NCBI RefSeq assembly: GCF_036588685.1
Contig: NC_086378.1
Location: 33,604,001 to 33,668,000, forward strand
Length of the DNA: 64,000 bases
From: Mytilus trossulus
Taxonomy: Eukaryota
Direction: 5' to 3'
Shown: one piece after another, positions 3,666 through 41,677 of the stretch
Layout: each line of letters starts with the position of its first letter
How positions within the stretch are numbered: position 1 is the stretch's first letter
Translations under genes and position numbers: made by a program
Notes under the pieces: generated by a model
Database searches by the model: none
Seen by the model: only the letters and a program-made list of their open reading frames with translations
Told to the model about the DNA's origin: nothing

Positions 3666-4149
3666 CTACATACAATAAAACAACACTCATGTAAGCCTTT
3701 GAATTATTTAAGTCAAAATCAGAATACAGGCAAGTTCTCTAATTTTGATTTTTTTTATAAATAATGTTTTCTCAAATTTACATCAAATCTTGTGTGATAA
3801 GCTGTTTTGGTTATAAATATATATTACATGAATCACTGGTTAAAACAGAATGAAGGAGTTTTTATATTTACATTGGTATTCTACATAACCAATAATATAA
3901 TCCGAACACTTGTTTGATGTCCATATAACCTTTCTAATTAGCAACATGATTTTGTGTAAATACGGTATAAAAGAACCTATGATCAGACTGAGGAGAAGAT
4001 ATAAAATTTTACAAAACTCCTAAAATATTAAAGTAAGATTCATTTAAAATGCAGTTCATTACCCTACACTTATAACATGTAGTTCTAATATTTAAACGTG
4101 CGTGTTGAGGAAGGAAAAATCTAATTTCATCAAAACCTAAACTGACCGT

Positions 4150-4320
4150 TAGACTATAATAACAAATAACGGTGAAGTTTGATGTTAATCAAGCAATGTT
4201 TCTCAATATACGGTATGACGTGTTTGCGACGGACAGACGGATGGACGGATGGGCAGTCATTTTTATACATGTACCATAATACGTTCCGTCGAAATTTGAT
4301 GGGCATAAAAAAACCGGTGT
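4150..4320 (+). mobile_element. End of a non-autonomous Helentron/HINE-like interspersed repeat (second copy ~11090-11250)
   Basis: GACG/GATG-type microsatellite (gacggacagacggatggacggatgg) followed by cataatacgttccgtc...gatgggcataaaaaaa short hairpin and A tail. Family assignment is from recalled bivalve repeat architecture. Confidence 0.5.
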
Positions 4321-4936
4321 AATAAGTTCAGTTCCAGAAAACTCACGCGTACGACCTTGTACAAAATTTAAGCTGTTAATGTGTGGCCTTTGTTTTAACT
4401 GTTGACCAAATGAATTTACCAAATCCAAAAGTTTACTTTTTTATTTGAGTCCTTGTGATATAAGATGTCAGTTTTTTAATGAATATTGTGTTTTTCCCTT
4501 TTGTACCAGATCATTCTGAGACTAATAATGTTAGGGACATAATAATTAAGAACCAACATCTTATTTCACACATTTCATAACAAAAACATCCAACATATTT
4601 GTTCACACATGTTTTTGTGTTTTGTTCATAAAAAATTATATTTGTATAGAAATAAATATTTTACAATCATGTATATATCAAAAATACACGTGGTCCAAAA
4701 ACGACGAGAAACCAATCGACAATCGACAATCTGTTTGGTTTTCGCGTCTGTGCGTCTCTGAGTAAGATCTAGTGGACTTATATCTGACGTCTGATAATTG
4801 GCTAGGAGTAAAATAGGGCGTAAACCTCTATCTCCGTTATCATTGATCTTTTTTATTAATGATATTTTTTATAATATAACTGTTCCAAATAATGAATATA
4901 TAGTGAACCTAAATGGACTTTTTATCTATTTGATAC

Positions 4937-5135
4937 TTTTTCAACATTTACTTGACAAACTATCAAAATAATGTAGAACATGGAACATAGAAGTAAACAC
5001 TAATAAAACTAAAGAAGTTGTGTTCAGAAATGGATGGCAACTTGTAAATATTTATTTCATACATATTTAAATAGAACTTTAAATCGTAAATACCTACGTT
5101 TACCTTGGAACGTTGCTACACTTTAACGAGGAATT
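4937..5135 (+). mobile_element. Degenerate LINE RT fragment, C-terminal RT motifs (second copy ~11857-12060)
   Basis: Translates FQHLLDKLSK*CRTWNIEVNTNKTKEVVFRNGWQ...YVYLG, matching the LINE pattern L-Q-x-L-L-D...W-x-L-x-V-N-x-x-K-T-K...Y-L-G. Confidence 0.8.
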
Positions 5136-5894
5136 AAACGTGTTGCTATTTGTTTTCGTTGGACGAGTTGGGTATACCTATACATGTATGTTTTGAGAGA
5201 AAAATTAGTCTTAGAGGTATTGGTTACGTATTGTTATATATAAACCAGCTTTTGTGATAATAATTCATAGTCCTTTATGTTCCATCTTGGGGGCACGAAC
5301 AGTGCAATAAGCCATAGTCCTTTATATTCTATCTTTGTGATACGAACAGTGCAATAACCCATACGAATACCAATAATAATACGAAAGTTTTATTTTGATT
5401 TGGTTCACATATAACAATACAAATATAAGATAACATAGATTATATTAAAACACAGAACATGCAGATAAGTTATATAAACATCAAATTATTTCAAATGCAT
5501 ACAAAACAGCGCAAGCATATTGAATAACATGCAAAGCATCACTAAATACACATCTTCACATGCAAAAACTGAAGCATAACTAAATATTTCAGTACACATT
5601 AAAAATTAAGCACAAATAAAGATATAACACACAAAAGTCATGTAAAATTTAAGGCAAAATACAAACATGCCCATAGTCCTTTATATTTCTATAAATAGAC
5701 TAATGTAAACTCTCGCTCGTGGATTACTCTGTTTTAAAGAGATTTAAACAAAACTAGAAAGGAAACAAACAAAATTTTACAACAACCAATTTATGTCGAA
5801 CCTGGAAGCTCGACATAGGGTTAGTAATCCTGCTTCATCGGCGGCGGCAGCGTTAACTAATATATATTTTATAAGATGGAAGACATGGACTTTT

Positions 5895-6412
5895 TTATAC
5901 TTTGTATATGGATGCCTCATGTTACGAAGTTTCCGTCAGTCACATGTCCAATGTCCTTGACCTCATTTTCATGGTTCAGTGACTACTTTAAAAAAAAGTT
6001 AAAATTTTTTGTAATGTTAAATGCTCTCTTATTATAAGAAATAGGATAACTGTGTTTTGGTATGTTCGTACCTTGCAAGGTCTTCATGCCCATCAGAAAG
6101 TCTTTACTTGACCTCAACTTAGTGCTCTGTGTTAAAATTTTGGGTTTTGGTCTGTTTTTCTTAAACTTTAAGCAACAGGTCAACTATATTTGTTGTATGG
6201 AAGAATTAGTAGCTGTACATACCTGCCTGGCATGGTTCATCTGACCTTGACCTCATTTTCATGGTTCATTGGTTAATTTTTTTTATTTTCTTGGTTAATG
6301 TTAAGATTATGTGACAGTTGTAATAAAGCTTTATATTTAAGACTACATTGTATCAACATTATATCAATGATTAGTAAAGAAGGCGAGACATTCCAGCGTG
6401 TGCACTCTTGTT
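5895..6412. mobile_element. Non-autonomous interspersed repeat with internal TGACCTTGACCTCATTTTCATGGTTCA units (second copy ~12800-13320)
   Basis: Motif ccttgacctcattttcatggttca occurs at ~5955 and ~6245; element ends ggcgagacattccagcgtgtgcactcttgtt. Resembles abundant mussel Helentron-associated/MITE-like repeats. Confidence 0.6.
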
Positions 6413-6474
6413 ATCATATATGTTTGTGAACTCGAAAGGTGATGATACATAAACATGTGCATAAATATACGAAA

Positions 6475-6722
6475 ATGAGATATGATAGCAGAACAGACAA
6501 CTTTCCATCAAAGTCACAATTTATAAATTAACCCATCATAGGTCAAATTAATGCCATCAACACGGAGCCATAGCTCACACCGAACAGCATACTATAAAGG
6601 GCCCAAAAATTACTTTGATAGAACAATTGAAAAGAGAAAACCAAATGGTATAATCTATATAAAAAAAAAAAACATTTATGAACCATACCAACAAACGACA
6701 ACTACTTAACATCAGATTCCAG
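6475..6722 (+). repeat. Diverged copy of the AAGATGTGGTATGATTGCCAATGAGACAAC interspersed repeat family (also ~13385-13640)
   Basis: Colinear similarity to 24858-25062 (acaact..cca....ataggtca....gcc.tcaaca..gagc....gc.ca.accg...a...agctataaa.ggccc). Confidence 0.6.
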
Positions 6723-7695
6723 GTACTTTTGTCTATCGTTTCAAGGTTGTAAGTATAGATCTTGTTTCCATTATTCGTTGTCGAAACATCACATACTACG
6801 TCTCGATATAAACAATGAGATAAACGAAAAATTTGTGGCTATCTAAAAAGTTACTTAAGAGCAATCGAAATTTTGAAGATTTATAAATGGCGATAGATTG
6901 ACGCATTGCTTATGTTTTCATTAGTAAAAACTGCGCTCCTTAGTTATGATAGGCATTTGTTTGACCTTCCATATACTTTCCTACTGTAACCTTAAGACAG
7001 ACAAAGGCCATAGATTTTAACAGTTGGTGTGTGGTTATTTTCTGACAAGAACACGATATATAGGATTCACACCGAATACTTGCTGGCTAAAATAACATGT
7101 ATAGATTGTCACTTGACGTTACATAAACAACAATTTGAACCATTAACTTTACAATAGTCCTTAATATGCATGTAATACTTGGTTAACATTATGCAGCCAT
7201 AAATTACAATTATCGCTCCTAAAAGTCTTAATATAACAGGAAAAACAGTAATAAAATCGTTATTTCGAAACTCTTATGAAACATGTCCTGTCTATTGAAC
7301 TGTGAAAAAAAAATACATTCCAAATGCAGAAAATAGAAATGTTGACTGAAAAATCGGCGATGTTGGAATCTTTGCATGTAGATGTCATGTATGTTTCTTG
7401 GTTATTTTTCAAATTCATTGGCTGAAATTGATAAGTTAAAGTTCTTTGCGTTGCAAGTGATTGAGAGATAAAACAATTGTAAGGGAACCTAGTGTCTAGT
7501 CTTGTTTTGCGGTTAGTCGGAGGCTCAACAAATTTAGGGTAACAATTATTTAAAATGTTCCTCTGGATGCTATCTTTTGATTGTAAGAAGCTTATATCCA
7601 AGTTTGGTAAAACTCAAGGATTGTTTTGAATCTTATACATGTTTTAAATACTTTACATGCAGATTGTATGATAAGTTAACGTGAATGAAAAAAGT

Positions 7696-7815
7696 CTCAG
7701 ATAAGGGATGATTAGTACAAGAAACAGTATTATTGAGAAATAAAGCACTTTAATCATCATTACAGGACGGGGAAACAGTATTACAATTGGCATCTCAGAA
7801 AGGATACTTTGAGTT
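7696..7815 (+). pseudogene. Inverted, truncated copy of the ankyrin exon acceptor region
   Basis: ctcagataagggatgattagtacaagaaacagtattattgagaaa...taatcatcattacag|GACGGGGAAACAGTATTACAATTGGCATCTCAG (DGETVLQLASQKGYFE) is the reverse complement, with mismatches, of ~8440-8563. Confidence 0.85.
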
Positions 7816-8388
7816 ATTTATCTATCAGCGGGTAATATAGAACCACACACACGACCAATCATACCTCGCTTCAGTTTTCTAATGATCGTGTTTAGTCTAT
7901 AAGAATCGAAATAACTCATAGAAACCATAGATGTGTTGTAAATGTCGATGAATTTTTTTTTAAGTATATTTTTAGCGTCCATTGGCAAAAGATAGAGATC
8001 AGATTATCTATGCCGAGAACATATCAATGTGATTTACATTTGAAATCGGAAGTACCGATGTTCTGTTTTGATTTAAACGGTATTGCTGTCAGAACGATTG
8101 TAGACTCATGTAAAATGCTTACAAAACGGCTCAATTTTAACATTTAAACTTTTAACATCGCTCCGTCATCGATATACACTGTATCTAATTGCACATGTTC
8201 TACACGTGCCTAACTGAATGTCCATTAGTTTATTGATTGGTTGTTTGATTCATATAATGAAGTAATTTAGTTTTCTTGTGTTCACCATTTTAAGTCCTTT
8301 TAGATTTGAATACATTAACGAAAAATGCTCCTAACCTTGAGAGTGCAGTAATCTAAAACTTAACACAAACATAATGCAAAAATGTTAC

Positions 8389-8493
8389 CTTTGCTGTTTT
8401 AACCATGGGATCCATTCCTTTTTCTTCTATCAGCCATTTTGTAAACTCAAAGTTTCCGCTCTGAGCTGCCAAATGTAATACTGTTTCCCCTTC
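8389..8493 (-). CDS. Ankyrin-repeat exon (internal, 105 nt, phase 0/0)
   Basis: cag|GAAGGGGAAACA...GCAAAG|gtaac encodes EGETVLHLAAQSGNFEFTKWLIEEKGMDPMVKTAK. Confidence 0.9.
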
Positions 8494-11400
8494 CTGTAAT
8501 GATGATTAAAGTTTTATATTTCTCAATAATACTGTTTCTTGTTCTAATCATCAATTATCTGAGTACAAGAGGATGTGTGTCTATGTTGGTTTAACTAGAT
8601 GTTTGCAACATTTTATGTCATTGAACAGCCAATATGACAAAACAGAATGTCCATATCAAATCCTTTACGAATCGAAAAAAATCCCAAAGGATATAATTAT
8701 TCCCGGAGTTTTATCTCTTTTATGATAAAAAAAAATAAACAGCAGCGCCACGATTCTATTTCAAATATAATTATATTATCAATCTGTACAAATGAAGAGA
8801 ACGACGTGCAATCATTGTAAATTCTTTTCGTAATCTCCGGAATTTTCAAAACACTGTTATTGTTTACCCAAACTGTACAACCTGAATATTTTAGAAATAA
8901 TGTTTTCTCAAATTTACATCAAATCTTGTGTGATAAGCTGTAACTGTTTTGGTTATAAATATATATCACATGAATCACTGATCAAAACAGAATGAAGGAG
9001 TTTTTACATTTACATTGGTATTCTACATAACCAATAATATAATCCGAACACTTGTTTGATGTCCATATAACCTTTCTAATTAGCAACATGATTTTGTGTA
9101 AATACGGTATAAAAGAACCTATAATCAGACTGAGGAGAAGATATATATTTTTACAAAGGTTATGGCTTCCCTGTCACATCAATTTGTTTTCTTTGTTTCT
9201 TTTATATGCATCAGACAATAATGGTATTAATCCATTTTGTAATATCACAATAAAACTTGTGTCACTAGGTTGACGCTTTCGTATAAACATTTTAAACAAA
9301 ATAGACATCAAACTATTCAGAGGTCAAAAGAGAACAAAATCTCGACTGTCATTCCGTATCCCTAGAAATAAAGATCGTGAAAGAACATGAAATGGTAGTC
9401 AAACAATGCAATCATATAGTGAACGATCTGGCTACGCTTCGTGGGTGTAAAAAATATAATTCAACTTCTAAACGTTTTATGAATCACTATTTTTCGGAAT
9501 TTGTCAAAGAACTTTGAAATAACGACAAAAAATTACTTGTATTTCGATTTCGATTTTAACGTATGAAAGCAAACTAAAGCAAAGTAAAGGTATTTCTATC
9601 ATACTGTTACACGATAGCCATGCATTAATTGTATTGTATCGAATGTAGGGTGATTGGTTACCAGCGCAAACTATTACATATCGATGATCACTTAGTTGAT
9701 CGAAGGGTTCAATGTAAAATATTAAAGTAAGATTCATTTAAAATACAGTTCATTACCCTACACTTATAACATGTAGCTCTAATATTTAAACGTTCGTGTT
9801 GAGTAAGGTAAAGACTAACCTTAATTTACATTGTTTTGTTCGGCTTAGCTGACAGGGTGAGCGTTTGTCGGCAATATGCTAAATTATGACTACCAGAAGA
9901 CATTGTTTCGAACAGGGGCCGATCTTAAATACATGTTTTACAATTTTACTCAAAAATAGTGTTTGATTGTAGGAAACATGTGAATGTCAGTGATATTATG
10001 ATGTGATGAAATACATGCGGCTGTTTTCTGAAACATGCTTTGATGTCGGGTTTAAGGAATGCTCTGCTTTTAATAATACAATCTTTCCTCTTGATTGCAT
10101 ATCATGTAATATTGTTCGTTGAAATATGATCATTATTTGTCTACGTAACTCTTTTTCGACACAAGAAAGATTTATTCATTTTTTTTGTTACTTTCATTAA
10201 ATAAAATGTCCTAATCGTATTCGTTAATTGTCTTTATGAAACTTTTGAGTTCATGTTTGCAAACAGTACGGATGTGAATAAAGGATAAAATACATTATGG
10301 AAACTAATTCCTCTGGGGTGTAGTATACACTGATATTTTATCCTAATGCTCTCTTTTGATAATTTACACTCGGAAAGAGCATTGTGCACTTCTTGTGCAA
10401 TTAAATATATACAGCTACTAAAGTATAGTAGGGGATATTAGGTTTGTATTTTATTTGGGGAAGGGGTTACTGTTCCCAGGCAATACTAATTAGAGTATTT
10501 GTAGTATAATTCATTTTACTGATTTATTACAACTGTCCTTTAGTTTTCTTACCCATCAAGTTTAATAAATATAATTCATCTGAAAAAGGTCCACAACTCT
10601 GGAAGGAAAAATCAAAATTTCCCCCCAAAATATACAGAGTATATGACAATCATTAAAAACAAAAGTGTAAAGTTTGAATTTATTTTCATAGTGATAAAAT
10701 CTTTAATTTTGGATTTGATATCCTCTCAATATAACATAAATCACCTTTTTCATACTATTCTGTTATATTACTATCTTACCACGATAAACACATATTCTTC
10801 AAAGATATCTTGATATAATTTCGAGCCATCTTTTCGTACTATTTATTCGCCTTACTATGCTATTTTGTCAGAATACTATATCATACTTATACTTCTTTGA
10901 ACGACGTATAGCTATAATAGTAATACTTAAAAAGAATATGAAAAGTTTATTTTTTTGTTTATGTAGAAGTTAATAAGTTCGAGGTGAATATATATAGAAT
11001 GTGAAAAATTGACTCTTCCTTCTTATTCGAAAATAGTCCACAACTCTGGTAGGAAAATTCTTAATTCATCAAAAGCTATACAGACCGTTAGACTATCATA
11101 ACAAATAACGATGAAGTTTGATGTTAATCAAGCAATGTTTTCTCAATATACGGTATGCCATGTTTACGACGGACAGACGGATGGACGAATGGACTGACAT
11201 TTTTATACCATAATACGTTCCGTCAAAATTTGATGGGCATAACATAAACCGGAGTAATAGGTTCAGTTCCAGTAAACTCACGCGTAAGACCTTGTACAAA
11301 TGTAAGCTGTTAATGTGTGGCTTTTGTTTTAACAGTTGACTAAATGAATTTACCAAATCCAAAAGTTTACCTTGTGATATAAGATGTCTGGTTTTTTTAA

Positions 11401-14400
11401 TAAATATTGTGTGTTTTCCCTTTGGTAGCAGATCATTCTGAGACTGTTAATGTTAGGGACATAAGAATTAAGAACCAACATTGTATTTCACACATTTCAT
11501 AACAAAAAAAACAACATATTTTTTCACATGTTTTTGTGTTTTGTTCATAAAAGTTATGTTTGTATACAAATATATATTTTACAATCATGTATCTATTGAA
11601 AATACACGTGGTCCAAAGACGAAGAGAAACCAATCGACAATCGACAATCTTTTTGGTTTTCGCGTCTGTGCGTCTCTGAGTAAGATCTAGTGGACTTCTA
11701 TCTGACGTCTGATAATTGGATAGGAGTAAAATAGGGTGAAAACCTCTATCTCCGTTATCATTCATCTTTTTTTATTAATGATATTTTTGATAATATAACT
11801 GTTCCAAATAATGAAGATATAGTGAACCTAAATGGACTTTTTAATCTATTTGATACTTTTTCAACATTTACTTGACAAACTATCAAAATAATGTAGAACA
11901 TGGAACTTAGAAGTTAACACTAATAAAACTCAAGAAGTTGTGTTCAGAAATGGATGGCAACTTGTAAATAATGGTTTCATATATATTTAAATAGAACTTT
12001 CTATCGCAAATTCCTACGTTTACATTAGAACGTTGCTTCACTTTAACGAGGAATTAAACGTCTGGCTATTAGTTTTCTTTGGACGAGTTGGGTCATATAC
12101 CTATACATGTATGCTTTGAGAGAACAATTAGTCTTAGAGGTATTGGTTACGTATTGTTATATATTAACCAGCGTTTGTGATAATAATTCATAGTCCTATT
12201 TATTCCATCTTGGGGGTACGAACAGTGCAATAAGCCATTGTCCTTTATATTCCATCTTTGTGATACGAACAGTGCAATAACCCATACGAATACCAATAAG
12301 AATACGAAAGTTTGACTTTGATTTGGTTCACATATAACAATACAAATATAAGATTACATAGATTATATTAAAACACAGAACATGCAGATAAGTTATATAA
12401 ACATCAAATTATTTCAAATGCATACAAAACAGCGCAAGCATATTGAATAACATGCAAACACTGAAGCATAACTAAATATTTCAGCACACATGAAAAATTA
12501 AGCACAAATAAAGATATAACACACAAAAGTCATGTAAAATTTAAGGCAAAATACAAACATGACATGCCCATTGTCCTTTATATTTCTATAATTAGACTAA
12601 TGTAAACTCTCGCTCGTGGATTACTCTGTTTTAAAGAGATTTGAACAAAACTAGAAAGGAAACAAACAAAATTTTACAACAACCAATTTATGTCGAACCT
12701 GGAAGCTCGACATAGGGTTAGTAATCCTGCTTCATCGACGGCGGCAGCGTTAACTAACTTCTTAAAAGTTTTATATTTTAGAAGATGGAAGACATGGACT
12801 TTTTTTTATACTTTGTATATGGATGCCTCATGTTACGACGTTTCCGTCAGTCACATGTCCAATGTCCTTGACCTCATTTTCATGGTTCAGTGACTACTTT
12901 AAAAAAAAAGTTAAGATTTTTTGTAATGTTAAATGCTCTCTTATTATAAGAAATAGGATAACTGTGTTTTGGTATGTTCGTACCTTGCAAAGTCTTCATG
13001 CCCGTAAAGTCTTCACTTGACCTCGACTTAGTGCTCTGTGTTAAAATGTTGGGTTTTGGTCTGTTTTTCTTAAACTTTAAGCAACAGGTCAACTATATTT
13101 GTTGTATGGAAGAATTAGTAGCTGTACATACCTGCCTGGCATGGTTCATCTGACCTTGACCTCATTTTCATGGTTCATTGGTTATTTTTTTTATTTTCTT
13201 GGTTAATGTTAAGATTATGTGACAGTTGTAATAAAGCTTTATATTTAAGACTACATTGTATCAACATTATATCAATGATTAGTAAAGAAGGCGAGACATT
13301 CCAGCGTGTGCACTCTTGTTATCATATATGTTTGTGAACTCGAAAGGTGATGATACATAAACATGTGCATAAATATACGAAAATGAGATATGATAGCAGA
13401 ACAGACAACTTTCCATCAAAGTCACAATTTATAAATTAACCCATCATAGGTCAAATTAATGCCATCAACACGGAGCCATAGCTCACACCGAACAGCATAC
13501 TATAAAGGGCCCAATAATTACTTTGATAGAACAATTCAAAGGAGAAAACCAAATGGTATAATCTATATAAAAAAAACAAGAAACGAGAAACACTTATGAA
13601 CCATACCAACAAACGACAACTACTTAACATCAGATTCCAGGTACTTTTATCTATCGTTTCAAGGTTGTAAGTATAGATCTTGTTTCCATTATTCGTTGTC
13701 GAAACATCACATACTACGTCTCGATATAAACAATGAGATAAACGAAAAATTTGTGGCTATCTAAAAAGTTACTTAAGAGCAATCGAAATTTTGAAGATTT
13801 ATAAATGGCGATAGATTGACGCATTGCTTATGTTTTCATTAGTAAAAACTGCGCTCCTTAGTTATGATAGGCATTTGTTTGACCTTCCATATACTTTCCT
13901 ACTGTAACCTTAAGACAGACAAAGGCCATAGATTTTAACAGTTGGTGTGTGGTTATTTTCTGACAAGAACACGATATATAGGATTCACACCGAATACTTG
14001 CTGGCTAAAATAACATGTATAGATTGTCACTTGACGTTACATAAACAACAATTTGAACCATTAACTTTACAATAGTCCTTAATATGCATGTAATACTTGG
14101 TTAACATTATGCAGCCATAAATTACAATTATCGCTCCTAAAAGTCTTAATATAACAGGAAAAACAGTAATAAAATCGTTATTTCGAAACTCTTATGAAAC
14201 ATGTCCTGTCTATTGAACTGTGAAAAAAAAATACATTCCAAATGCAGAAAATAGAAATGTTGACTGAAAAATCGGCGATGTTGGAATCTTTGCATGTAGA
14301 TGTCATGTATGTTTCTTGGTTATTTTTCAAATTCATTGGCTGAAATTGATAAGTTAAAGTTCTTTGCGTTGCAAGTGATTGAGAGATAAAACAATTGTAA

Positions 14401-14613
14401 GGGAACCTAGTGTCTAGTCTTGTTTTGCGGTTAGTCGGAGGCTCAACAAATTTAGGGTAACAATTATTTAAAATGTTCCTCTGGATGCTATCTTTTGATT
14501 GTAAGAAGCTTATATCCAAGTTTGGTAAAACTCAAGGATTGTTTTGAATCTTATACATGTTTTAAATACTTTACATGCAGATTGTATGATAAGTTAACGT
14601 GAATGAAAAAAGT

Positions 14614-14733
14614 CTCAGATAAGGGATGATTAGTACAAGAAACAGTATTATTGAGAAATAAAGCACTTTAATCATCATTACAGGACGGGGAAACAGTATT
14701 ACAATTGGCATCTCAGAAAGGATACTTTGAGTT
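14614..14733 (+). pseudogene. Inverted truncated ankyrin exon copy (second unit)
   Basis: Same as 7696-7815 at +6918. Confidence 0.85.
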
Positions 14734-15306
14734 ATTTATCTATCAGCGGGTAATATAGAACCACACACACGACCAATCATACCTCGCTTCAGTTTTCTAA
14801 TGATCGTGTTTAGTCTATAAGAATCGAAATAACTCATAGAAACCATAGATGTGTTGTAAATGTCGATGAATTTTTTTTTAAGTATATTTTTAGCGTCCAT
14901 TGGCAAAAGATAGAGATCAGATTATCTATGCCGAGAACATATCAATGTGATTTACATTTGAAATCGGAAGTACCGATCTTCTGTTTTGATTTAAACGGTA
15001 TTGCTGTCAGAACGATTGTAGACTCATGTAAAATGCTTACAAAACGGCTCAATTTTAACATTTAAACTTTTAACATCGCTCCGTCATCGATATACACTGT
15101 ATCTAATTGCACATGTTCTACACGTGCCTAACTGAATGTCCATTAGTTTATTGATTGGTTGTTTGATTCATATAATGAAGTAATTTAGTTTTCTTGTGTT
15201 CACCATTTTAAGTCCTTTTAGATTTGAATACATTAACGAAAAATGCTCCTAACCTTGAGAGTGCAGTAATCTAAAACTTAACACAAACATAATGCAAAAA
15301 TGTTAC

Positions 15307-15411
15307 CTTTGCTGTTTTAACCATGGGATCCATTCCTTTTTCTTCTATCAGCCATTTTGTAAACTCAAAGTTTCCGCTCTGAGCTGCCAAATGTAATACT
15401 GTTTCCCCTTC
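15307..15411 (-). CDS. Ankyrin-repeat exon, duplicate of 8389-8493
   Basis: Same sequence and splice sites as 8389-8493 at offset +6918. Confidence 0.88.
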
Positions 15412-17848
15412 CTGTAATGATGATTAAAGTTTTATATTTCTCAATAATACTGTTTCTTGTTCTAATCATCAATTATCTGAGTACAAGAGGATGTGTGTCT
15501 ATGTTGGTTTAACTAGATGTTTGCAACATTTTATGTCATTGAACAGCCAATATGACAAAACAGAATGTCCATATCAAATCCTTTACGAATCGAAAAAAAT
15601 CCCAAAGGATATAATTATTCCCGGAGTTTTATCTCTTTTATGATAAAAAAAAATAAACAGCAGCGCCACGATTCTATTTCAAATATAATTATATTATCAA
15701 TCTGTACAAATGAAGAGAACGACGTGCAATCATTGTAAATTCTTTTCGTAATCTCCGGAATTTTCAAAACACTGTTATTGTTTACCCAAACTGTACAACC
15801 TGAATATTTTAGAAATAATGTTTTCTCAAATTTACATCAAATCTTGTGTGATAAGCTGTAACTGTTTTGGTTATAAATATATATCACATGAATCACTGAT
15901 CAAAACAGAATGAAGGAGTTTTTACATTTACATTGGTATTCTACATAACCAATAATATAATCCGAACACTTGTTTGATGTCCATATAACCTTTCTAATTA
16001 GCAACATGATTTTGTGTAAATACGGTATAAAAGAACCTATAATCAGACTGAGGAGAAGATATATATTTTTACAAAGGTTATGGCTTCCCTGTCACATCAA
16101 TTTGTTTTCTTTGTTTCTTTTATATGCATCAGACAATAATGGTATTAATCCATTTTGTAATATCACAATAAAACTTGTGTCACTAGGTTGACGCTTTCGT
16201 ATAAACATTTTAAACAAAATAGACATCAAACTATTCAGAGGTCAAAAGAGAACAAAATCTCGACTGTCATTCCGTATCCCTAGAAATAAAGATCGTGAAA
16301 GAACATGAAATGGTAGTCAAACAATGCAATCATATAGTGAACGATCTGGCTACGCTTCGTGGGTGTAAAAAATATAATTCAACTTCTAAACGTTTTATGA
16401 ATCACTATTTTTCGGAATTTGTCAAAGAACTTTGAAATAACGACAAAAAATTACTTGTATTTCGATTTCGATTTTAACGTATGAAAGCAAACTAAAGCAA
16501 AGTAAAGGTATTTCTATCATACTGTTACACGATAGCCATGCATTAATTGTATTGTATCGAATGTAGGGTGATTGGTTACCAGCGCAAACTATTACATATC
16601 GATGATCACTTAGTTGATCGAAGGGTTCAATGTAAAATATTAAAGTAAGATTCATTTAAAATACAGTTCATTACCCTACACTTATAACATGTAGCTCTAA
16701 TATTTAAACGTTCGTGTTGAGTAAGGTAAAGACTAACCTTAATTTACATTGTTTTGTTCGGCTTAGCTGACAGGGTGAGCGTTTGTCGGCAATATGCTAA
16801 ATTATGACTACCAGAAGACATTGTTTCGAACAGGGGCCGATCTTAAATACATGTTTTACAATTTTACTCAAAAATAGTGTTTGATTGTAGGAAACATGTG
16901 AATGTCATTGATATTATGATGTGATGAAATACATGCGGCTGTTTTCTGAAACATGCTTTGATGTCGGGTTTAAGGAATGCTCTGCTTTTAATAATACAAT
17001 CTTTCCTCTTGATTGCATATCATGTAATATTGTTCGTTGAAATATGATCATTATTTGTCTACGTAACTCTTTTTCGACACAAGAAAGATTTATTCATTTT
17101 TTTTGTTACTTTCATTAAATAAAATGTCCTAATCGTATTCGTTAATTGTCTTTATGAAACTTTTGAGTTCATGTTTGCAAACAGTACGGATGTGAATAAA
17201 GGATAAAATACATTATGGAAACTAATTCCTCTGGGGTGTAGTATACACTGATATTTTATCCTAATGCTCTCTTTTGATAATTTACACTCGGAAAGAGCAT
17301 TGTGCACTTCTTGTGCAATTAAATATATACAGCTACTAAAGTATAGTAGGGGATATTAGGTTTGTATTTTATTTGGGGAAGGGGTTACTGTTCCCAGGCA
17401 ATGCTAATTAGAGTATTTGTAGTATAATTCATTTTACTGATTTATTACAACTGTCCTTTAGTTTTCTTACCCATCAAGTTTAATAAATATAATTCATCTG
17501 AAAAAGGTCCACAACTCTGGAAGGAAAAATCAAAATTTCCCCCCAAAATATACAGAGTATATGACAATCATTAAAAACAAAAGTGTAAAGTTTGAATTTA
17601 TTTTCATAGTGATAAAATCTTTAATTTTGGATTTGATATCCTCTCAATATAACATAAATCACCTTTTTCATACTATTCTGTTATATTACTATCTTACCAC
17701 GATAAACACATATTCTTCAAAGATATCTTGATATAATTTCGAGCCATCTTTTCGTACTATTTATTCGCCTTACTATGCTATTTTGTCAGAATACTATATC
17801 ATACTAATACTTCTTTGAACGACGTATAGCTATAATAGTAATACTTAA

Positions 17849-17948
17849 NNNNNNNNNNNNNNNNNNNNNNNNNNNNNNNNNNNNNNNNNNNNNNNNNNNN
17901 NNNNNNNNNNNNNNNNNNNNNNNNNNNNNNNNNNNNNNNNNNNNNNNN
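17849..17948. other. Assembly gap (100 N)
   Basis: Run of 100 N. Confidence 1.
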
Positions 17949-20059: not shown

Positions 20060-20365
20060 TGTTGATGTAACTCGAAACGATCTTCTGATTGGCTGACGTT
20101 ATTTTGTTACATGAGCCTATGGACATAATTTAGTCATGTGACCGTGACGTCATCAACGTTTTTTCATGCTTTTCTACGGTTTAAAATGGAACTTAGAATT
20201 AAATTATAAGAAATGACTGTAATATTTTTTCTGTCTATTCGAAATAACATTAAAAAAATGTGGTGCACACTGTTGAATAACACGCAACCCACGTTATTCA
20301 ATGTGCACCAATTTTTTTATGTTATTTCTTCATAGACAGAAAAATATAACAGTCATTCCTTTATT
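20060..20365. mobile_element. Non-autonomous element with a long sub-terminal palindrome (Crypton-like architecture)
   Basis: aatgactgtaatattttttctgtctat..gaaataacat.aaaaaa.tggtgcacact.ttgaataac / gttattcaatgtgcaccaattttttatgttatttc..atagacagaaaaatata.acagtcatt forms a ~75-bp imperfect stem at 20205-20362. Confidence 0.6.
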
Positions 20366-20368
20366 AAT

Positions 20369-20599
20369 TTGTATCAAGGAGAAACATCCAACAGTAGAAG
20401 ATGCGGTTGTGCAATTACTTTAAGAATGGTAGGAGTCGATAATCAAGTGATCAATCAACACGTGGGTTGGAGTTCCAAGGGAATGATAGACCATTATGCA
20501 CATGTTGTAAAATTAATGAGCACCGAAGGTCCAGCTAGCATTTGGGATAAGAGTCGTCTTTCTTCGATAAAGTTTCACAAAACTTTGTCAGTAATTTGA
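20369..20599 (+). pseudogene. C-terminal fragment of a tyrosine recombinase (DIRS/Ngaro/Crypton-type)
   Basis: GETSNSRRCGCAITL...INQHVGWSSKGMIDHYA matches the YR H-S-x-R-x-G-x-A ... G-W-x-S ... Y motifs, with H changed to N. 5' truncated. Confidence 0.75.
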
Positions 20600-23500
20600 A
20601 AGTTTAAATTTTGAATTTGTTTTATTAAATTTTGAAAACGTGATAATTATTTACACGCACTTTTTTCAGACGTTATGAATAACTGTATTTCAAGAAAGGA
20701 GAAAACTTAAACATTTAATTAAGGTAAATTTGATTTGTTCATAACTATTTTATGTATACTTTATATTATAAGTATTGGATAGTGAAAACTGTATTAAATG
20801 AGTTTAGTTTGTTTCGGTATGTTTATTATTTTACACACAGTTGCACGGTTTTTGGTTTGTTGTCCTTCGTATCTAACATATGAGAGGTACCGGGGTGAAC
20901 TTGTAAAATTCCGCTATTACAAGTTCATCCTTGGGTGCCTCGAATAAATAGATAACGCGGTCATCTTGTGTTCTGGTTTGTTGATTGTAACCCGAATAAT
21001 TCAGTCGTTATATTCCGCTGCTCTACGAAGGCTTCGTGTGGGAGAACATCGGACACGGAAAAGGCTTGAATTATTCGAGTTATGTTGATTGGAGTTTGCA
21101 GTGAAGGTCATAAGCAATATGGAATATGACAATGACATGCCCTGTGTGTTAATTTTCATCAAGTGGGTAAAGATTGTTAGGAAACGTATGGTATAATCAG
21201 CATTATATCATGTAACTATTTCCCTTTCATAACGGTATAACGGTATACTATTAGGTATAAATGGTTGTCTATTCAAGCGGCCCGTAGCTACAGCTAATCC
21301 TTCTCGAGACAATGAATGGCTGGTTAGGTGATATTTTCTCCAAAAACAATTCTGGGATTGCTAGCGCCCTCTATTCATTAACTATGCCCCCCCCCCCCTT
21401 TATCTGATATGTTTCGTCTACGTATGTTCGACAAACGGTCTTCTTTCGTATAAATGGTCTAGATGACGCTTTCTGAAAGGGACATCAAATAAACCAATTT
21501 GCAAATAAAATTACTATTTTAACGGATCTACGAAAACATGCCACTTGCTCTAAATGTATTTGCATTTTTGGATAATTTTTATGAATTACAAATTTACGTA
21601 TTTATGACAAATATGAAATTGATTTAATTCGGAATTGAGAGAATCAGTGACAACAAGTCGATCCATGGGAATCGTGTGTATGTACAATTATACCAAACGC
21701 GTCCGTTATCATGTGTCAGTCACTCGGAATGAAACGCTACATGATAATTGTTTTAAATGATACATTAAGACATTAATTAAAACATATTGTATTTCCAATT
21801 CTGAGCCCTTGTGTGATATACATTCTTGTTATCTTATTTCAACCAACTGCCAAAACGTTTAGCTTTTCTTCAATCACTTGAATAGTATACCATTATTATA
21901 TATATATAACATCTAAACGTTTACTTCTGCATATGCTGAATTAATCAAACTGTTTGGTTTTGATTCCCATAGATGTAACAAGTGATACAAATTAGAGTTG
22001 TATCCCTTTGTCCAGTGAAACGTGTATCGAAATTGTTCTCCCTTATGTTTACTGTCAAACAGATCACACGATAAACAATCTAGAACGGACAGCTTATGCT
22101 TATTTGATACCCAGTAGATCCTGGACTTCATGTTTCGGATATTTCGAATACGCAAAAGCCGAAATCATATTCTCTCGTTTTTCTAATCAACTAAGAAGAG
22201 CTGTCAATCTTTGTAAAATTATATGTTTTTTCAAAATATTTATTAAATAATATCAACGAAATTTAAGGCAAAATGTAACTACAAAAATAAATAGACTAGT
22301 GTCTTCATAATGGTGTTCTGAAGTCCATGTGAAGTAGTCTTTACAATAACAAATAAAGGATAAGATAAAATAATACCTGTGTAATAGTATACGAAATAAA
22401 ACGATACAGAGAAATTTTGCATGAAAATAACATAGCAAAAAATACATATAGGGCTGTATGTTCGGTATTATTATAGAAATGCGACCAGAAAATATTTATT
22501 CAGTTTGTAATGTATGAGTATTGGCATGTTGTAAGAAATTATTATAAAACGCATTTTTCCTTCAATAATTCGCACACGTATTGTGTCCCGATGTATCTTG
22601 TAAAGTTTAACAAAAAAATGACATTATTAAAAATTAAATTTTGATAGATAGAGGCTCGTAATGGAACTTGAAGTCAACCAGAGAAACTCATTCAGAGAGT
22701 TTAATTTTGGATACAATTATTGACCAATAAATTATACATGTATTTGACAAACAACCCGTCTAACTTAGCTATAAGTCTTAGTGTAACGTCCAACAGCCGT
22801 GCAGACTTGGTATACGTATTTATAGCGCGAACGTCGAAGAGAGCACCTGGATTGAACTTTTTTTTCTGAATTGACCAATTACGCGTTAGTTCTCTTCTAA
22901 TGTTTCTAGCAAAATGATTTTTTAGGCGGAATTTTATTTCGTCTGCTAGAAGTTCTCAAAGGATTTAGACAAATTACCCGCAAATCTCATTCCTGAAATA
23001 GAAACTTAGCATAACGGACTTTACATAACAATTGTAAGTTTATTATTCTTATAAAATTTAAATATTTGAGTGGTAATACAGGATGCAATAGTAATTTATC
23101 AAGAAGCACAGGGACGCAGACCATATTTTATTTATTTTGATGATGCAGCATTGTATTTATAATAGCTTGGTAGTTATATAAGAGGCAAACTCCAAAAACC
23201 CGGATTCTACTCTCAGTGAAAATAAATGATAGTAGATTTCAGTGCACTAGTTATTTTACGTTATCAATGTTTGTTCTTTGATTTCAAAATGTTGTTTTGA
23301 ATTGTTAGAGTTGTTTATAACTTTATGACGATAGAAATCAACTGTTGACGTTATCATATTAGTGAGAGCTGCTAAGAGTTCAGTCACAAATAGTACATGC
23401 ACATTAATATACCTGTTATCAATTATGCCCTGCTTATTCTCTCAACGCAGCTAGAAAATCCTTAACCCAGAAAACGCGTTAAAAGAACACCCAATTCTGA

Positions 23501-23937
23501 TGCTAGAATAGGTAAAAGAAGAAACTGTAAGCAAAATGACGATGATCATCATAAACACTAAAAGGGCAATTAGCAGTTAGTTATATGTATTTGCCTTCGC
23601 GATTATATACATGATTTCATGCAGCCGGTCGTAACATTTTTTTGTTCGTGATTAATTGCATTGATAAATCGAATAATATGTGGTTTGCAGAAAGAAACTG
23701 ACTTTTAACCAACAACCTACATCGTTCACCTCCAAAAGCTGACGCGAGACAAACAAGACTCTCATAAGATGAATACCAGTTGTTTGTGTAATACTCTAAT
23801 TTTATTAAAGTTACGCAACTCCATTTGATATTTCTTAACTTTTATTCCATACAGTATAAAATTCGCAAAATAAGTTCAAAATCAAATACCTTTTTTGAGA
23901 TTTTAGACATAATCGGAAATAATATTTTAACAGTTAT

Positions 23938-24321
23938 ATGGAGACGTTTTGGAGAAAACTTGAGGCAAGAATTTCAGAACAAACAACACAAGATCCATAT
24001 TCTGAGTGTTTAATTTGGAAGGGAAGCTTGGACAAACAGAAGATATATGGCACTGTTCATTATCGCGATCCCGTCGATTATAAATGGAAACATAGAAAGG
24101 CTCATAGAGTTGTTTTAATGCTGAGAGACAAGACTCTGCAGATTCCCCGCGATAAAGACGCTAGTCATCTCTGTCATAATTCATTATGTGTCAATGTTGA
24201 CCATGTAAACCTTGAACCTAGGGGTGTCAATAATCAAAGAAAAAGTTGTGACGTTGAGGGCATATGTTTCGGCCACGGTTCATACCCAAAATGCAAGCTG
24301 AACATTTATAATTTGAATTAA
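23938..24321 (+). CDS. His-Me finger / His-Cys box endonuclease, I-PpoI-like (zinc-binding loop homing endonuclease family), 127 aa
   Basis: Intact ATG-to-TAA ORF with ECLIW..G..YG..AHR..ASHLCHNSLCVNVDHVNLEPRGVNNQRKSC-x5-C-x2-H-x5-C, colinear with the I-PpoI SHLCHN..C.N..H...E....N..R..C......C.H...C core. Confidence 0.92.
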   Translation: METFWRKLEARISEQTTQDPYSECLIWKGSLDKQKIYGTVHYRDPVDYKWKHRKAHRVVLMLRDKTLQIPRDKDASHLCHNSLCVNVDHVNLEPRGVNNQRKSCDVEGICFGHGSYPKCKLNIYNLN

Positions 24322-24399
24322 CTACTATATCATAGTATGTAATTGTTTTGTACATCAAAACACTTTTGTATCGTTTTATATATTTGTTTTATTGCATGG

Positions 24400-24621
24400 T
24401 TGTCAACTGGTTTAAGTATTTCAACTGCATCACTGACCTGCCAACACAGAGGTTGTAATTCCGAACCCATCACGTGGTAGATGCGGTCGACTCCATTCTA
24501 AATTGACCGAAGGTTAGGTTCTCTCCAGACACTCCTGTCTCCTCAACCAAATAACAAATAACCGTGACGAATAGCCAATAGTGCTGAAAATGAAGGTTAA
24601 ACACAAAACAATCAATCAAAC
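24400..24621 (+). mobile_element. Degenerate tRNA-derived SINE with V-domain-like core (copy at ~33012-33233)
   Basis: B-box-like ggttgtaattccgaaccc, core ggttctctccagacactcctgtctcctc (cf. V-SINE GGTTTTCTCCGGGTACTCCGGTTTCCTCC), tail gttaaacacaaaacaatcaatcaa. Confidence 0.65.
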
Positions 24622-24857
24622 TACCTCTTAAGTGTTTATTGTACAGTCTGATACTACCTCTATGAACAAAAATACAATTATAGAATTAAGCAAAATGTAA
24701 TAAAAAAAAGTGGCTACATCGATAAATTTCTTTCGATTAAATATTTTTTTATTTTTCTATATTCAATTTTTATTATTTATGTACGTTGATTTTGTTGAAA
24801 AAGGAATACTGCTTTCTCAAAATTTGAGTAGACAGGCATATGAACCATTCAAATTAA

Positions 24858-25062
24858 TATAAAAAAGAAGATGTGGTATGATTGCCAATGAGACAACTAT
24901 CCACAAAAGACCAAAATGACACAAACATTAACAATTATAGTTCACCGTATGGCCTTCAACATTGAGCAAAGCCCATACCGCATATAGTCAGCTATAAAAG
25001 GCCCCGATAAGACAATGTAAAACAATTCAAGCGTGACTGACGACCTTATTTATGTAAAAAAA
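24858..25062 (+). repeat. Abundant mussel-type interspersed repeat (AAAAAAGAAGATGTGGTATGATTGCCAATGAGACAAC...), copy at ~33470-33674
   Basis: Same family occurs at 6475, 13385 and 19305(-), and as a 5' stub in the histone spacer (~42137-42166). Confidence 0.7.
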
Positions 25063-25069
25063 TGAAGGT

Positions 25070-25707: not shown

Positions 25708-27260
25708 AAGCCCAGGTCACACCTTAACGGATAGCGCGGACTTTTTAAACTGTTCATTTGCTTTAGATGTCCGTTCTTATTCGTAAGACTTTCGTTTATT
25801 TCCGTTCATGTCTGTTCAGGATCCGTTTTATCCGTCGACGTCCGTTCTGTCCGTTGAAAAATTTTGAGCATGTTCAAAACTTTGATCGGACGCCCAAAGG
25901 ATGAAGTATCCGTTTCTACCGGCAGTCGTCTGTTTCGTTTCCGTTTTGTATCCATTATTAGTCCGTAATTCATCCGTTAAAGGTCCGGTAGACAATTCAA
26001 CAACGGACTTCTACCGGACGTATTTACATAACGGATAAAACGGATGTGAAACAGATAAATGCCAATAGAAAATTTTTGGTTGGAAACAAATCATTGGTTG
26101 TCAGATTTCGTGCGTATCATGAACGCTTTTATTATTCATGATTGATCTTAGAGTAAGAGCGACGCCTTCCCAATCAATCAGCTCTTATTCAGGCCAGACC
26201 CTACCATTTGGTGGCATTTTGAAGAATATTTAAACCCAAAACCAGTTTCACGGAAACTTTCCCGAATATCTTTATTTATGCATCTGTTTTAGCCGGTACG
26301 TATTACGTAATGCAATACTCGTCCGTTGGATGTTCGTTCTACATCCAATCTGTCCGGTACGTTACCGTGTCTCGTATGTTACATATCCTGCTAGTGTGTG
26401 TCCGTTATGCATTCGTTACGCGTCCGTTTTATTTGGTCAGCACACCAACGGAATCCAAAGCGATAACAATTCTGTCAACGGAAAAAATTGTTTTCAACTG
26501 TTCGGCGTCCGTTCGGGGCTATCCGGTAAGGGATATCACAACTTAACGGATAGCGCAAACGGATATACTTTTTCAATTCGTTCATGTCCGTTAGAAGTCC
26601 ATTTATTTCCGTTTCATGTCCGTTCATCGTCTGTCATATCAGTCGACACCCGTTCTGTCCGGTGGAAAATCTTGAGCCTGTTTAAAACTTTGAACGGGCG
26701 TTCAGCAGATGAACTGTCCGTTGAACATCCGGTAGTCGTCGGTTTTTTTTTACCGTACTCGCCCGTTCCGTTTATATTTCATATTCGTTACTAAATTGTC
26801 CGTTATTCATGCGTTAGAGGTCCGCTATACTAATTCAACAACAGACTCCTACCGTACGCATAACGGATGAAACAGATGATCATGGTGAACGGATGTGAAA
26901 CGGCATTTTGAAGAATAAACCAAAACCAGTTACACAGAAACTGCTGGAATATTTTTGCATTTTACATGTCATTTTATTGTGGTCTTTTTTTTTCGCATAC
27001 TAGCATCTTGGTTATCCGTTTTATCAGCTACACTTCCGTTAGATTTTCGCTTTATGAGGAACTCTTCCGTTGGATGTACGATCGAAATCTGTTCTTTCCG
27101 GTATGTTTCCGTTTCTCGTACATTGCATATGTGTGTCTGTTATGCATTTGTTAAGCGTCCGTTTTATTTGGTTATTACACCAACGGATTCCTTACGGATA
27201 ACAATTTTGTCAACGGAAAACTTTAATGGTTGCTATCCTTTAAGGGTTGACCACAGCTTT
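25708..27260. mobile_element. Head-to-tail dimer of a CCGTT/AACGG-rich MITE-like element
   Basis: Left end aagcccaggtcacaccttaacggatagc and right end gctatcctttaagggttgaccacagctt form an imperfect TIR. Internal junction gctatccggtaagg..cacaacttaacggatagc at ~26518-26555 separates two diverged monomers (~820 and ~720 bp). Confidence 0.7.
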
Positions 27261-32549: not shown

Positions 32550-32933
32550 ATGGAGACGTTTTGGAGAAAACTTGAGGCAAGAATTTCAGAACAAACAACA
32601 CAAGATCCATATTCTGAGTGTTTAATTTGGAAGGGAAGCTTGGACAAACAGAAGATATATGGCACTGTTCATTATCGCGATCCCGTCGATTATAAATGGA
32701 AACATAGAAAGGCTCATAGAGTTGTTTTAATGCTGAGAGACAAGACTCTGCAGATTCCCCGCGATAAAGACGCTAGTCATCTCTGTCATAATTCATTATG
32801 TGTCAATGTTGACCATGTAAACCTTGAACCTAGGGGTGTCAATAATCAAAGAAAAAGTTGTGACGTTGAGGGCATATGTTTCGGCCACGGTTCATACCCA
32901 AAATGCAAGCTGAACATTTATAATTTGAATTAA
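32550..32933 (+). CDS. His-Me finger endonuclease, copy 2
   Basis: Identical protein to 23938-24321. Confidence 0.92.
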   Translation: METFWRKLEARISEQTTQDPYSECLIWKGSLDKQKIYGTVHYRDPVDYKWKHRKAHRVVLMLRDKTLQIPRDKDASHLCHNSLCVNVDHVNLEPRGVNNQRKSCDVEGICFGHGSYPKCKLNIYNLN

Positions 32934-40171: not shown

Positions 40172-40271
40172 NNNNNNNNNNNNNNNNNNNNNNNNNNNNN
40201 NNNNNNNNNNNNNNNNNNNNNNNNNNNNNNNNNNNNNNNNNNNNNNNNNNNNNNNNNNNNNNNNNNNNNNN
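40172..40271. other. Assembly gap (100 N)
   Basis: Run of 100 N. Confidence 1.
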
Positions 40272-41080
40272 GTATGACGATGACAATTTCATCAGCCAAT
40301 CCAATAAAAATGTTAATGCGCACACATGTACTTACTATTCTGAAGACTTCTTTTAGCCAGAAAAGTTTATAATAAGTCTGAAAACCACTTTTTATCATAT
40401 AAAAAGCTTATAAGTGCAAGATATATGCTTACATGGACTTCCTACATTGAAATTTTGTGGGGACTACTTGGACCCGTACCGAAATTATATTAATTTAAAT
40501 AGAAATTTCATGATTTTGTTAACTAGCAGCAAGACAAGACTCTAAAGTGGACAAATATATTACTACATACATGATAAAAAAATTCTTTACAATTCTGACT
40601 GAAAAAGAGCCTCTAAATTTTTGATAAAAGTACCCTGTAATATCAGCTTTTCTAAAAGAAATATTCAAATTAATGAATTATACAAGATATTTAAACTCTA
40701 ACTTAAAAAAAAGGTTATATTTTGGCCAGTTGGTGGTTCTCTTTCTTTGGTCTAGACTACTGGTGTAAATAATACATCAAAAGAAGACAAGACAAAACAA
40801 GCGAAGAAAGAAAAGAACAGAAGTACAGATAGAAACATTTATATGTTGATCTTTTTTTATATAATGTACTATTTAATATTCTACACACAAGGACATACAT
40901 GTACCATGATAAACAAACACCCCCCCTTTTTTTTGTGATGAGACTTGTGTGTATATATATATCATAAAATTTATTTTTTGTCTATGTATTGCTTTGCATA
41001 TAGATGGATTCAACAAGAAGAAATAAAAGAGAGAGAGAGAGATGGGGAAAAGAGGGGTTCGGCTATGTTTCTAATTTTCA

Positions 41081-41677
<597 letters not shown>

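Follow-up and report, generated by a model that had tools for sequence, protein, structure and literature searches.

A predicted His-Cys box nuclease gene related to those of KolobokP elements, located outside any recognised element in a young tandem duplication of the Mytilus trossulus genome

The window analysed here is a stretch of 64,000 nucleotides on contig C6 of the 1.3 Gb genome that was searched. The open reading frame (ORF) at 23938-24321 of the forward strand was free of stops on translation and encodes a protein of 127 amino acids. The copy at 32550-32933 proved to be DNA-identical to the first one, in agreement with the uninterrupted frame which the initial annotation had noticed in both complete units. 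The features of the window are the following, with the basis of each assignment in brackets.

4109-17848, no strand assigned: separate 6.9-kb tandem duplication, 96.9% identical, without nuclease gene (self-comparison, profile search)
17949-40171, no strand assigned: head-to-tail array, 2.6 units of 8.6 kb, 99.98% identical (self-comparison; gap-bounded)
20336-21183, forward strand: degenerate remnant of a tyrosine-recombinase element (Pfam hit below the cut-off to Phage_integrase, E 0.0024)
23479-23588, forward strand: decayed dispersed repeat fragment, 74-79% identical over longer matches to family members (genome DNA search)
23590-23937, forward strand: unique upstream spacer, found in the two array copies only, without an LTDR end where one is expected
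23938-24321, forward strand: nuclease ORF copy 1, KolobokP-type, predicted His-Me finger of His-Cys box type, intact 127 amino acids (translation, profile, fold, residues)
24400-24623, forward strand: decayed dispersed repeat, 68-70% identical over long matches, beginning about 80 bp past the stop codon (genome DNA search)
24780-25066, no strand assigned: pieces of high-copy dispersed repeats, 86-89% and 71-81% identical to other copies (genome DNA search)
32550-32933, forward strand: nuclease ORF copy 2, identical (DNA comparison)
40272-64000, no strand assigned: histone gene array with H3, H2A, H2B and H4, 5.6-kb unit (ORFs, self-comparison, Rfam)

The period of the nuclease-bearing array is 8,614/8,612 bases, and its 2.6 units span a 22.2-kb stretch. 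Over the 13,611 bases of the two overlapping unit comparisons the copies were the same except for 2 bases at 21387-21388, within a stretch of C; the array is very recent. Since gaps of 100 N flank it on both sides (17849-17948 and 40172-40271), the array ends and its true size are absent from the assembly. The histone array is connected to the nuclease array across an assembly gap only; it extends past the window (locus L063), and no H1 was present among the listed ORFs. In the first unit the ORF list lacks the H2A frame, and the first histone H3 (41078-41572) carries a frameshift; both defects are perhaps sequence errors close to the gap. The duplication at 4109-17848 also ends at a gap and may represent two haplotypes or an older duplication. 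At 25717-27220 a TCCGTT-rich repeat stands in two adjoining copies that have diverged (69-79%), and a 154-aa ORF inside this repeat (26330-26794) had no Pfam match. The tyrosine-recombinase remnant, a passenger in the unit, is 80% identical to two genomic copies (on C5 and C9) and contains a 95-bp insertion. The nuclease was rejected as a part of this element: the two genomic copies stop matching 2.7 kb short of the ORF, and the nuclease matches include neither the C5 nor the C9 place. Weak Pfam hits under the cut-off (KDM6_GATAL with E 7e-4, DUF6169, Terminase_4 and DUF2576) were taken as chance.

The protein matched the Pfam family zf-His_Me_endon (PF05551) with 46.1 bits against a cut-off of 27 (E 7.3e-12), thus the I-PpoI-like character proposed in the initial annotation was upheld by the profile. 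The only sequence matches in the PDB were three I-PpoI entries, and these were weak (E 0.12-0.16). The AlphaFold model of the 127-aa protein had a pLDDT of 92 and I-PpoI was its best structural match (Z 9.3, rmsd 3.6, 112 aligned residues), so the predicted structure pointed in the same direction. The next structural family was I-HmuI (Z 6.1), followed by the Smad MH1 and NFI domains (Z 4.2-5.5); Foldseek alone gave a weak match to I-PpoI (E 0.011).

In the alignment with I-PpoI the residues H56, H77, C79, C84, H89, E93, N98 and C104 correspond to H78, H98, C100, C105, H110, E114, N119 and C125, respectively. C24, C110, H113 and C119 lie beyond this alignment and were placed via the family alignment, in which they are present in 98-99% of 264 relatives. 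The catalytic set of I-PpoI (H98, H110 and N119, plus S97 and E114) is matched by H77, H89, N98, S76 and E93, and all eight Cys/His of the two zinc sites (C24/C79/C84/H89 and C104/C110/H113/C119) are present, with 98-100% conservation among the 264 relatives. The assignment of catalytic residues and zinc ligands made at first reading therefore holds in both alignments. All 21 strongly conserved positions (those shared by at least 87% of the 264 relatives) are kept in the ORF. The likeness to I-PpoI and the His-Cys box homing endonucleases thus extends to the fold, the equivalents of H98, H78 and N119 and both zinc sites, while the sequence identity is 20%. The C-terminal arm of I-PpoI is its dimerisation arm; since the alignment stops at I-PpoI residue 141, an arm of this type is missing here. 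In I-PpoI, according to a published study (PMC11325842), H98 is the main general base and H78 is held in reserve. Judged from the sequence and the structural model, the gene encodes an intact His-Me finger nuclease of the His-Cys box (I-PpoI) type. The product would be a zinc-stabilised one-metal nuclease with H77 as general base and N98 holding Mg, and it would read DNA by a three-stranded beta sheet in the manner of I-PpoI. The 15-base I-PpoI site was absent from the forward strand of the window, a result that is uninformative.

Alternatively, a longer host gene could have captured the nuclease domain, with the ORF as its final exon, since a pyrimidine-rich acceptor-like AG ends five bases upstream of the ATG and no stop interrupts the frame there. 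However, the ATG aligns with the start methionine of the family, no other coding exon was recognised in the unit, and longer fused forms were found in none of 13 candidates, although this is a weak test. Such an arrangement appears extremely improbable. The upstream spacer has a TATAAA at 23855, a word that chance alone would give about 1.3 times per kb, and the occurrence of a TATA box and a polyA signal was no more than expected by chance.

At the Rfam gathering thresholds neither an rRNA nor a group I intron family was detected in the 64-kb window, all 17 hits being histone stem-loops. A KolobokP transposase profile made from 14 transposase ORFs gave nothing above 5 bits in the window, and 39 of the 56 control loci scored above 60. 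By tblastn the best transposase match in the window had an E of 0.07 and was located in the histone array. When Pfam was run on all 88 stop-to-stop frames of at least 40 amino acids in the unit, the nuclease alone was above the cut-off. The Rfam, tblastn, profile and Pfam searches therefore bore out the first impression that rDNA, group I intron and transposase ORF are missing. I-PpoI sits in an rDNA group I intron, whereas the present nuclease has neither intron nor rDNA around it.

In KolobokP elements the nuclease gene lies tail-to-tail with a DDD/E transposase gene between long terminal direct repeats (LTDRs; PMC9587614), which have short terminal inverted repeats (TIRs, RR..YY). No LTDR-like direct repeat pair of about 450 or 660 bp was found at the nuclease ORF, and the matches of the locus to 13 KolobokP LTDRs were none better than E 0.002 and at most 42 bp long. 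In the 13 control elements the LTDR is placed upstream at a distance of 84-397 bp from the nuclease; a lone LTDR from a decayed family that went unsampled may conceivably still stand beside the ORF. The TIR scan gave two chance pairs, neither of them upstream of the ORF, and no element ends were recognised at which a target site duplication would be expected. In the KolobokP multimers, (LTDR-INT)n-LTDR, each unit is an LTDR joined to an internal region (INT), about 2-4.7 kb in all, whereas the array unit here does not have this make-up and consists of 8.6 kb of mixed decayed repeats. DNA relatives of the ORF elsewhere in the assembly were not found, only the array copies (40 scored of 103 candidates), and the same was the case for the upstream flanks (2 of 2 and 3 of 3 candidates). 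In these searches with ORF, flank and LTDR DNA, an alignment of the flanks to a known KolobokP, the outcome which the initial annotation had set against its own proposal, was not obtained. For the Mytilus KolobokP families, Table S1 of PMC9587614 gives LTDR numbers of 17-303 copies. The nuclease gene occupies about 800 bases between two decayed repeats of about 70-80% identity to their relatives. The downstream one (24400-24623), which we take to be SINE-like, occupies the place where a KolobokP transposase gene would end. The locus is neither a KolobokP element nor an intron homing gene. Two marks of domestication, a single locus and the loss of the mobility signals, were both observed.

The protein search of the same genome gave a very different picture, since all 150 scored candidates (of 283) matched the nuclease. 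From the 150 plus 136 listed matches 57 loci were picked by hand, in a non-random manner that covered families and singletons, and L064 was left out as an edge-cut record of the same copy as L054. The 56 remaining paralogous loci comprised 39 with transposase (L114 and L118 with weak transposase scores, 38 and 60 bits), 13 with an LTDR or direct repeat and no transposase (in L070 and L078 the repeats were unmatched to a known LTDR) and four bare ones; the window itself, flagged solely by its own 8.6-kb repeat, was reclassified in this count. Thus 52 of the 56 adjoin a KolobokP transposase or terminal repeat. The nuclease was intact in five of the 13 transposase-less loci and in one of the four bare loci. 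The closest genomic paralogues (41%) are complete KolobokP elements with convergent DDD/E transposase and 460-bp LTDRs. The rarity implied in the initial annotation for a free-standing nuclease stood only in part: well over 100 relatives are present in the genome, nearly all in a KolobokP setting, and intact copies without transposase exist. The present locus is also free of KolobokP LTDRs.

In the tree (53 of about 290 rows) the protein nested among the KolobokP-type nucleases, that is, inside the group with which the initial annotation had suggested comparison, without a supported sister. Together with P0002, a 96% identical twin from another sample, it forms a long branch (1.07 changes per column to the fork). 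Outside the genome the best full-length relatives were 43-48% identical (1,584 representatives, E 0.001), and none was found between 52% and 96% identity. Since no orthologue of intermediate identity (50-90%) was met, the gene looks confined to close relatives. The JGI metagenome scan gave 51 pattern matches and no relatives. Five short peptide motifs, the family-wide one included, were unmatched in supplement 3 of PMC9587614, which is uninformative; the consensus sequences there may include a family closer to the gene than those compared here.

The nuclease therefore shares with the published KolobokP nuclease (PMC9587614) the length of about 125 amino acids, the common motif set and the host group. 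It is 33-41% identical to the closest KolobokP-encoded copies in the genome and differs from them in having no convergent DDD/E transposase, 450/660-bp LTDRs or TIRs and in standing outside any multicopy family, on its long branch. The nuclease-only KolobokP copies L054, L055 and L065-L067 resemble the locus in their intact nuclease and absent transposase; however, they have kept their LTDRs, are dispersed in many copies, and their nuclease is only 28-29% identical to the present one. They belong to a non-autonomous family of about 2.6 kb with a nuclease and no transposase between the LTDRs (L054, L055, L057, L065-L067, L113 and L127), of which L066 is a tandem dimer; in this family one could ask, in a natural setting, whether the nuclease suffices to promote multimers.

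A second nuclease gene without element was observed at about 480 kb from the window. L056:4447-4860 (forward strand; G000:C6:34107446-34107859) is an intact 138-aa His-Me nuclease gene without transposase or LTDR, with an old repeat 135 bp upstream. No other DNA copy of it was found (40 scored of 576 candidates). It belongs to another lineage, 40-44% identical to the closest KolobokP copies.

Part of 23800-24420 was contained in 20 of the 22 listed public DNA runs (11 studies), one of which may be the source of the stretch; these runs have six organism labels, plus metagenomes. No RNA run appeared among them, which bears on expression in neither direction. The gene apparently occurs once per haplotype in them. 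Four runs, X1, X2, X6 and X8, which had been chosen for words shared with the stretch, were compared in detail. In X1 the unit was a single invariant path with a depth of 88-99 and a diverged class was seen at 20-24, a ratio of about 4:1 (at the ORF about 95 against 22); contig depth is a rough guide and the single-copy depth of X1 is uncalibrated, so the resulting number of about four copies is approximate. The pattern may also reflect a homozygous two-copy state plus a separate paralogue. In X2, X6 and X8 the depth of the ORF was like that of the flanks, and amplification was thus visible in one of the four runs. The description of the gene as amplified in tandem thus refers to the two assembled copies and to the approximately four copies estimated from depth in the single run X1.

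The initial annotation had raised the possibility of a selfish driver, a nuclease that enlarges its array through break-induced recombination; in this model the enzyme would cut within the 8.6-kb unit and unequal crossover would follow. The extreme youth of the array and its single path in X1 would suit such a process, and nuclease-induced unequal crossover has been put forward as a hypothetical model for the KolobokP multimers (PMC9587614). Tandem arrays are common in the KolobokP family, and the copies in this genome often form them. Near-identical long multimer arrays were observed at C1:22.30-22.38 Mb, C48, C303, C319, C504, C4:92.1 Mb and C8:72.9 Mb, with up to about 18 units and with inversions on C1; several of them fill whole unplaced contigs. 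However, the present array has no LTDR or other long direct repeat as seed, unrelated DNA makes up 96% of the unit, three of the four runs show no amplification, and two neighbours, the adjoining 6.9-kb duplication and the histone array, are also in tandem and have no nuclease gene. Self-expansion is therefore very improbable, and that claim fails. Since the amplification is very recent, is visible in one of four runs, has no LTDR and is adjoined by a nuclease-free duplication, the ORF was likely carried along as a passenger when the 8.6-kb unit was recently duplicated in tandem.

The same runs bear on the idea of a free-standing homing gene, the nuclease of which cuts the empty allele so that repair copies the gene across, with no host benefit. 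The active site is intact and the locus is common to many samples; moreover, X1 has an allele of minor depth in the flanks without a separate contig at 24096/24207, which could be an empty allele. However, this pattern fits equally well the merging of alleles in a conserved ORF. In X8 the depth of 16.3 corresponds to two alleles, thus both haplotypes seem to bear the gene, and no empty site was seen in the runs compared. The flanks are polymorphic non-coding DNA, which would be a poor homing target. We consider homing of this kind quite unlikely, and the same slight likelihood applies to the broader claim of an active animal nuclear homing gene of the His-Cys box type that stands without intron or transposon, with the second orphan as an independent case.

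The age of the gene at this site was estimated from the divergence among the runs. One contig of X8 spans the upstream repeat into the start of the ORF with 33 differences in 443 bases (7.4%), therefore the presence of the gene here predates that divergence. In X8 the flank alleles, at 5-13% divergence, form separate contigs, whereas a single contig with the depth of both covers the ORF. The ORF pieces of X2 and X6 had 9 differences in 771 bases and no gap letters, compared to 102 in 2875 and 37 gap letters in the flanks, two repeat-derived X6 pieces being left out of the comparison. The Fisher p of 0.0003 for these values is overstated, given the linkage of the sites and the choice of the runs by means of this stretch; for the latter reason the low divergence of the ORF is partly a matter of choice. 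Among the 40 best-supported of 685 differences two were in the ORF, both synonymous. In a neutral simulation requiring an open frame and 13 key residues, and assuming an indel rate of one eighth, survival was 18% at 2% change, 8% at 3%, 1.3% at 5% and 0.2% at 8%. P0002, an allele or orthologue, has an intact frame of 127 amino acids. These results point to an old orphan, and purifying selection has, more probably than not, kept the ORF open.

The neutral alternative is that the gene is left over from KolobokP. As the solo internal fragment of a non-autonomous family, either extinct or not sampled, it would have been duplicated passively and simply not yet disabled by mutation. Intact nuclease-only KolobokP copies (L054, L055, L065-L067) are present in the genome, and solo internal regions after LTDR excision are, besides solo LTDRs and multimers, a published form of KolobokP (PMC9587614). 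Five residues differ between the protein and P0002, among them L83S at a position of 70% conservation, and in P0001 V90 stands where 85% of the relatives have L. Intact nuclease ORFs persist in elements with LTDRs 94-96% identical (L068 and L065), therefore a drift of a few percent is survivable, and the neutral survival at 2% change in the simulation is in line with this. The confinement of the orthologues to close relatives would also fit a leftover. On the other hand, the assembly has no other copy of the flanks and no matching LTDR, the upstream spacer of X8 is 7% diverged while the ORF alleles are merged, every one of the 21 strongly conserved positions is kept, and three of the four other bare loci are broken. 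The neutral leftover is a realistic explanation, yet on balance we think it rather doubtful.

Our preferred explanation, in which we have slightly more belief than disbelief, is that a KolobokP nuclease gene survived the loss of its element, that selection has maintained it, as a zinc-dependent small nuclease or as a DNA binder, and that its later copying was passive. Three points speak against this explanation: the 800-bp piece could have arrived by insertion, the repeats on either side being older; the second bare orphan (L056, one of the four other bare loci) may mean that leftovers are not rare; and confinement to close relatives is unlike a long-established host gene. The gene would derive from the internal region of a KolobokP element after the loss of the transposase and the LTDRs. 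Two routes would lead to this state, namely a solo-INT after LTDR excision, as published (PMC9587614), or the nuclease-only non-autonomous elements that are present in this genome. The element would have decayed long ago and left the nuclease gene behind; as a stand-alone gene the ORF was likely held open since then by purifying selection, and the 8.6-kb duplication would be passive, by unequal exchange. Our best guess for the function is a DNA-cutting or DNA-binding role retained by the host in the germ line, for example against the terminal repeats of related elements.

According to PMC9587614 and PMC13565253 no function of the KolobokP nucleases has been tested, and no report of a domesticated one was met in the literature search, including the accessible parts of PMC12750733 and PMC13565253. 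The nuclease family itself is abundant and already known in this host. If the gene is neutral, it is of little interest, one more KolobokP leftover in a copy-number variant of the mussel. The Smad MH1 and NFI domains, the next structural neighbours after the nucleases, are host DNA-binding domains derived from the His-Me fold and provide a precedent for domestication; they have no nuclease active site, unlike the present protein, which keeps it. Domestication of the nuclease is thus plausible. If the gene was kept intact after the loss of its element, it would stand as a candidate for the domestication of a His-Cys box nuclease by an animal, a parallel to the way in which the MH1/NFI-type DNA-binding domains may have arisen from the His-Me fold, and the orphan, with its clean and small protein, lends itself to the question of what the KolobokP nucleases cut.
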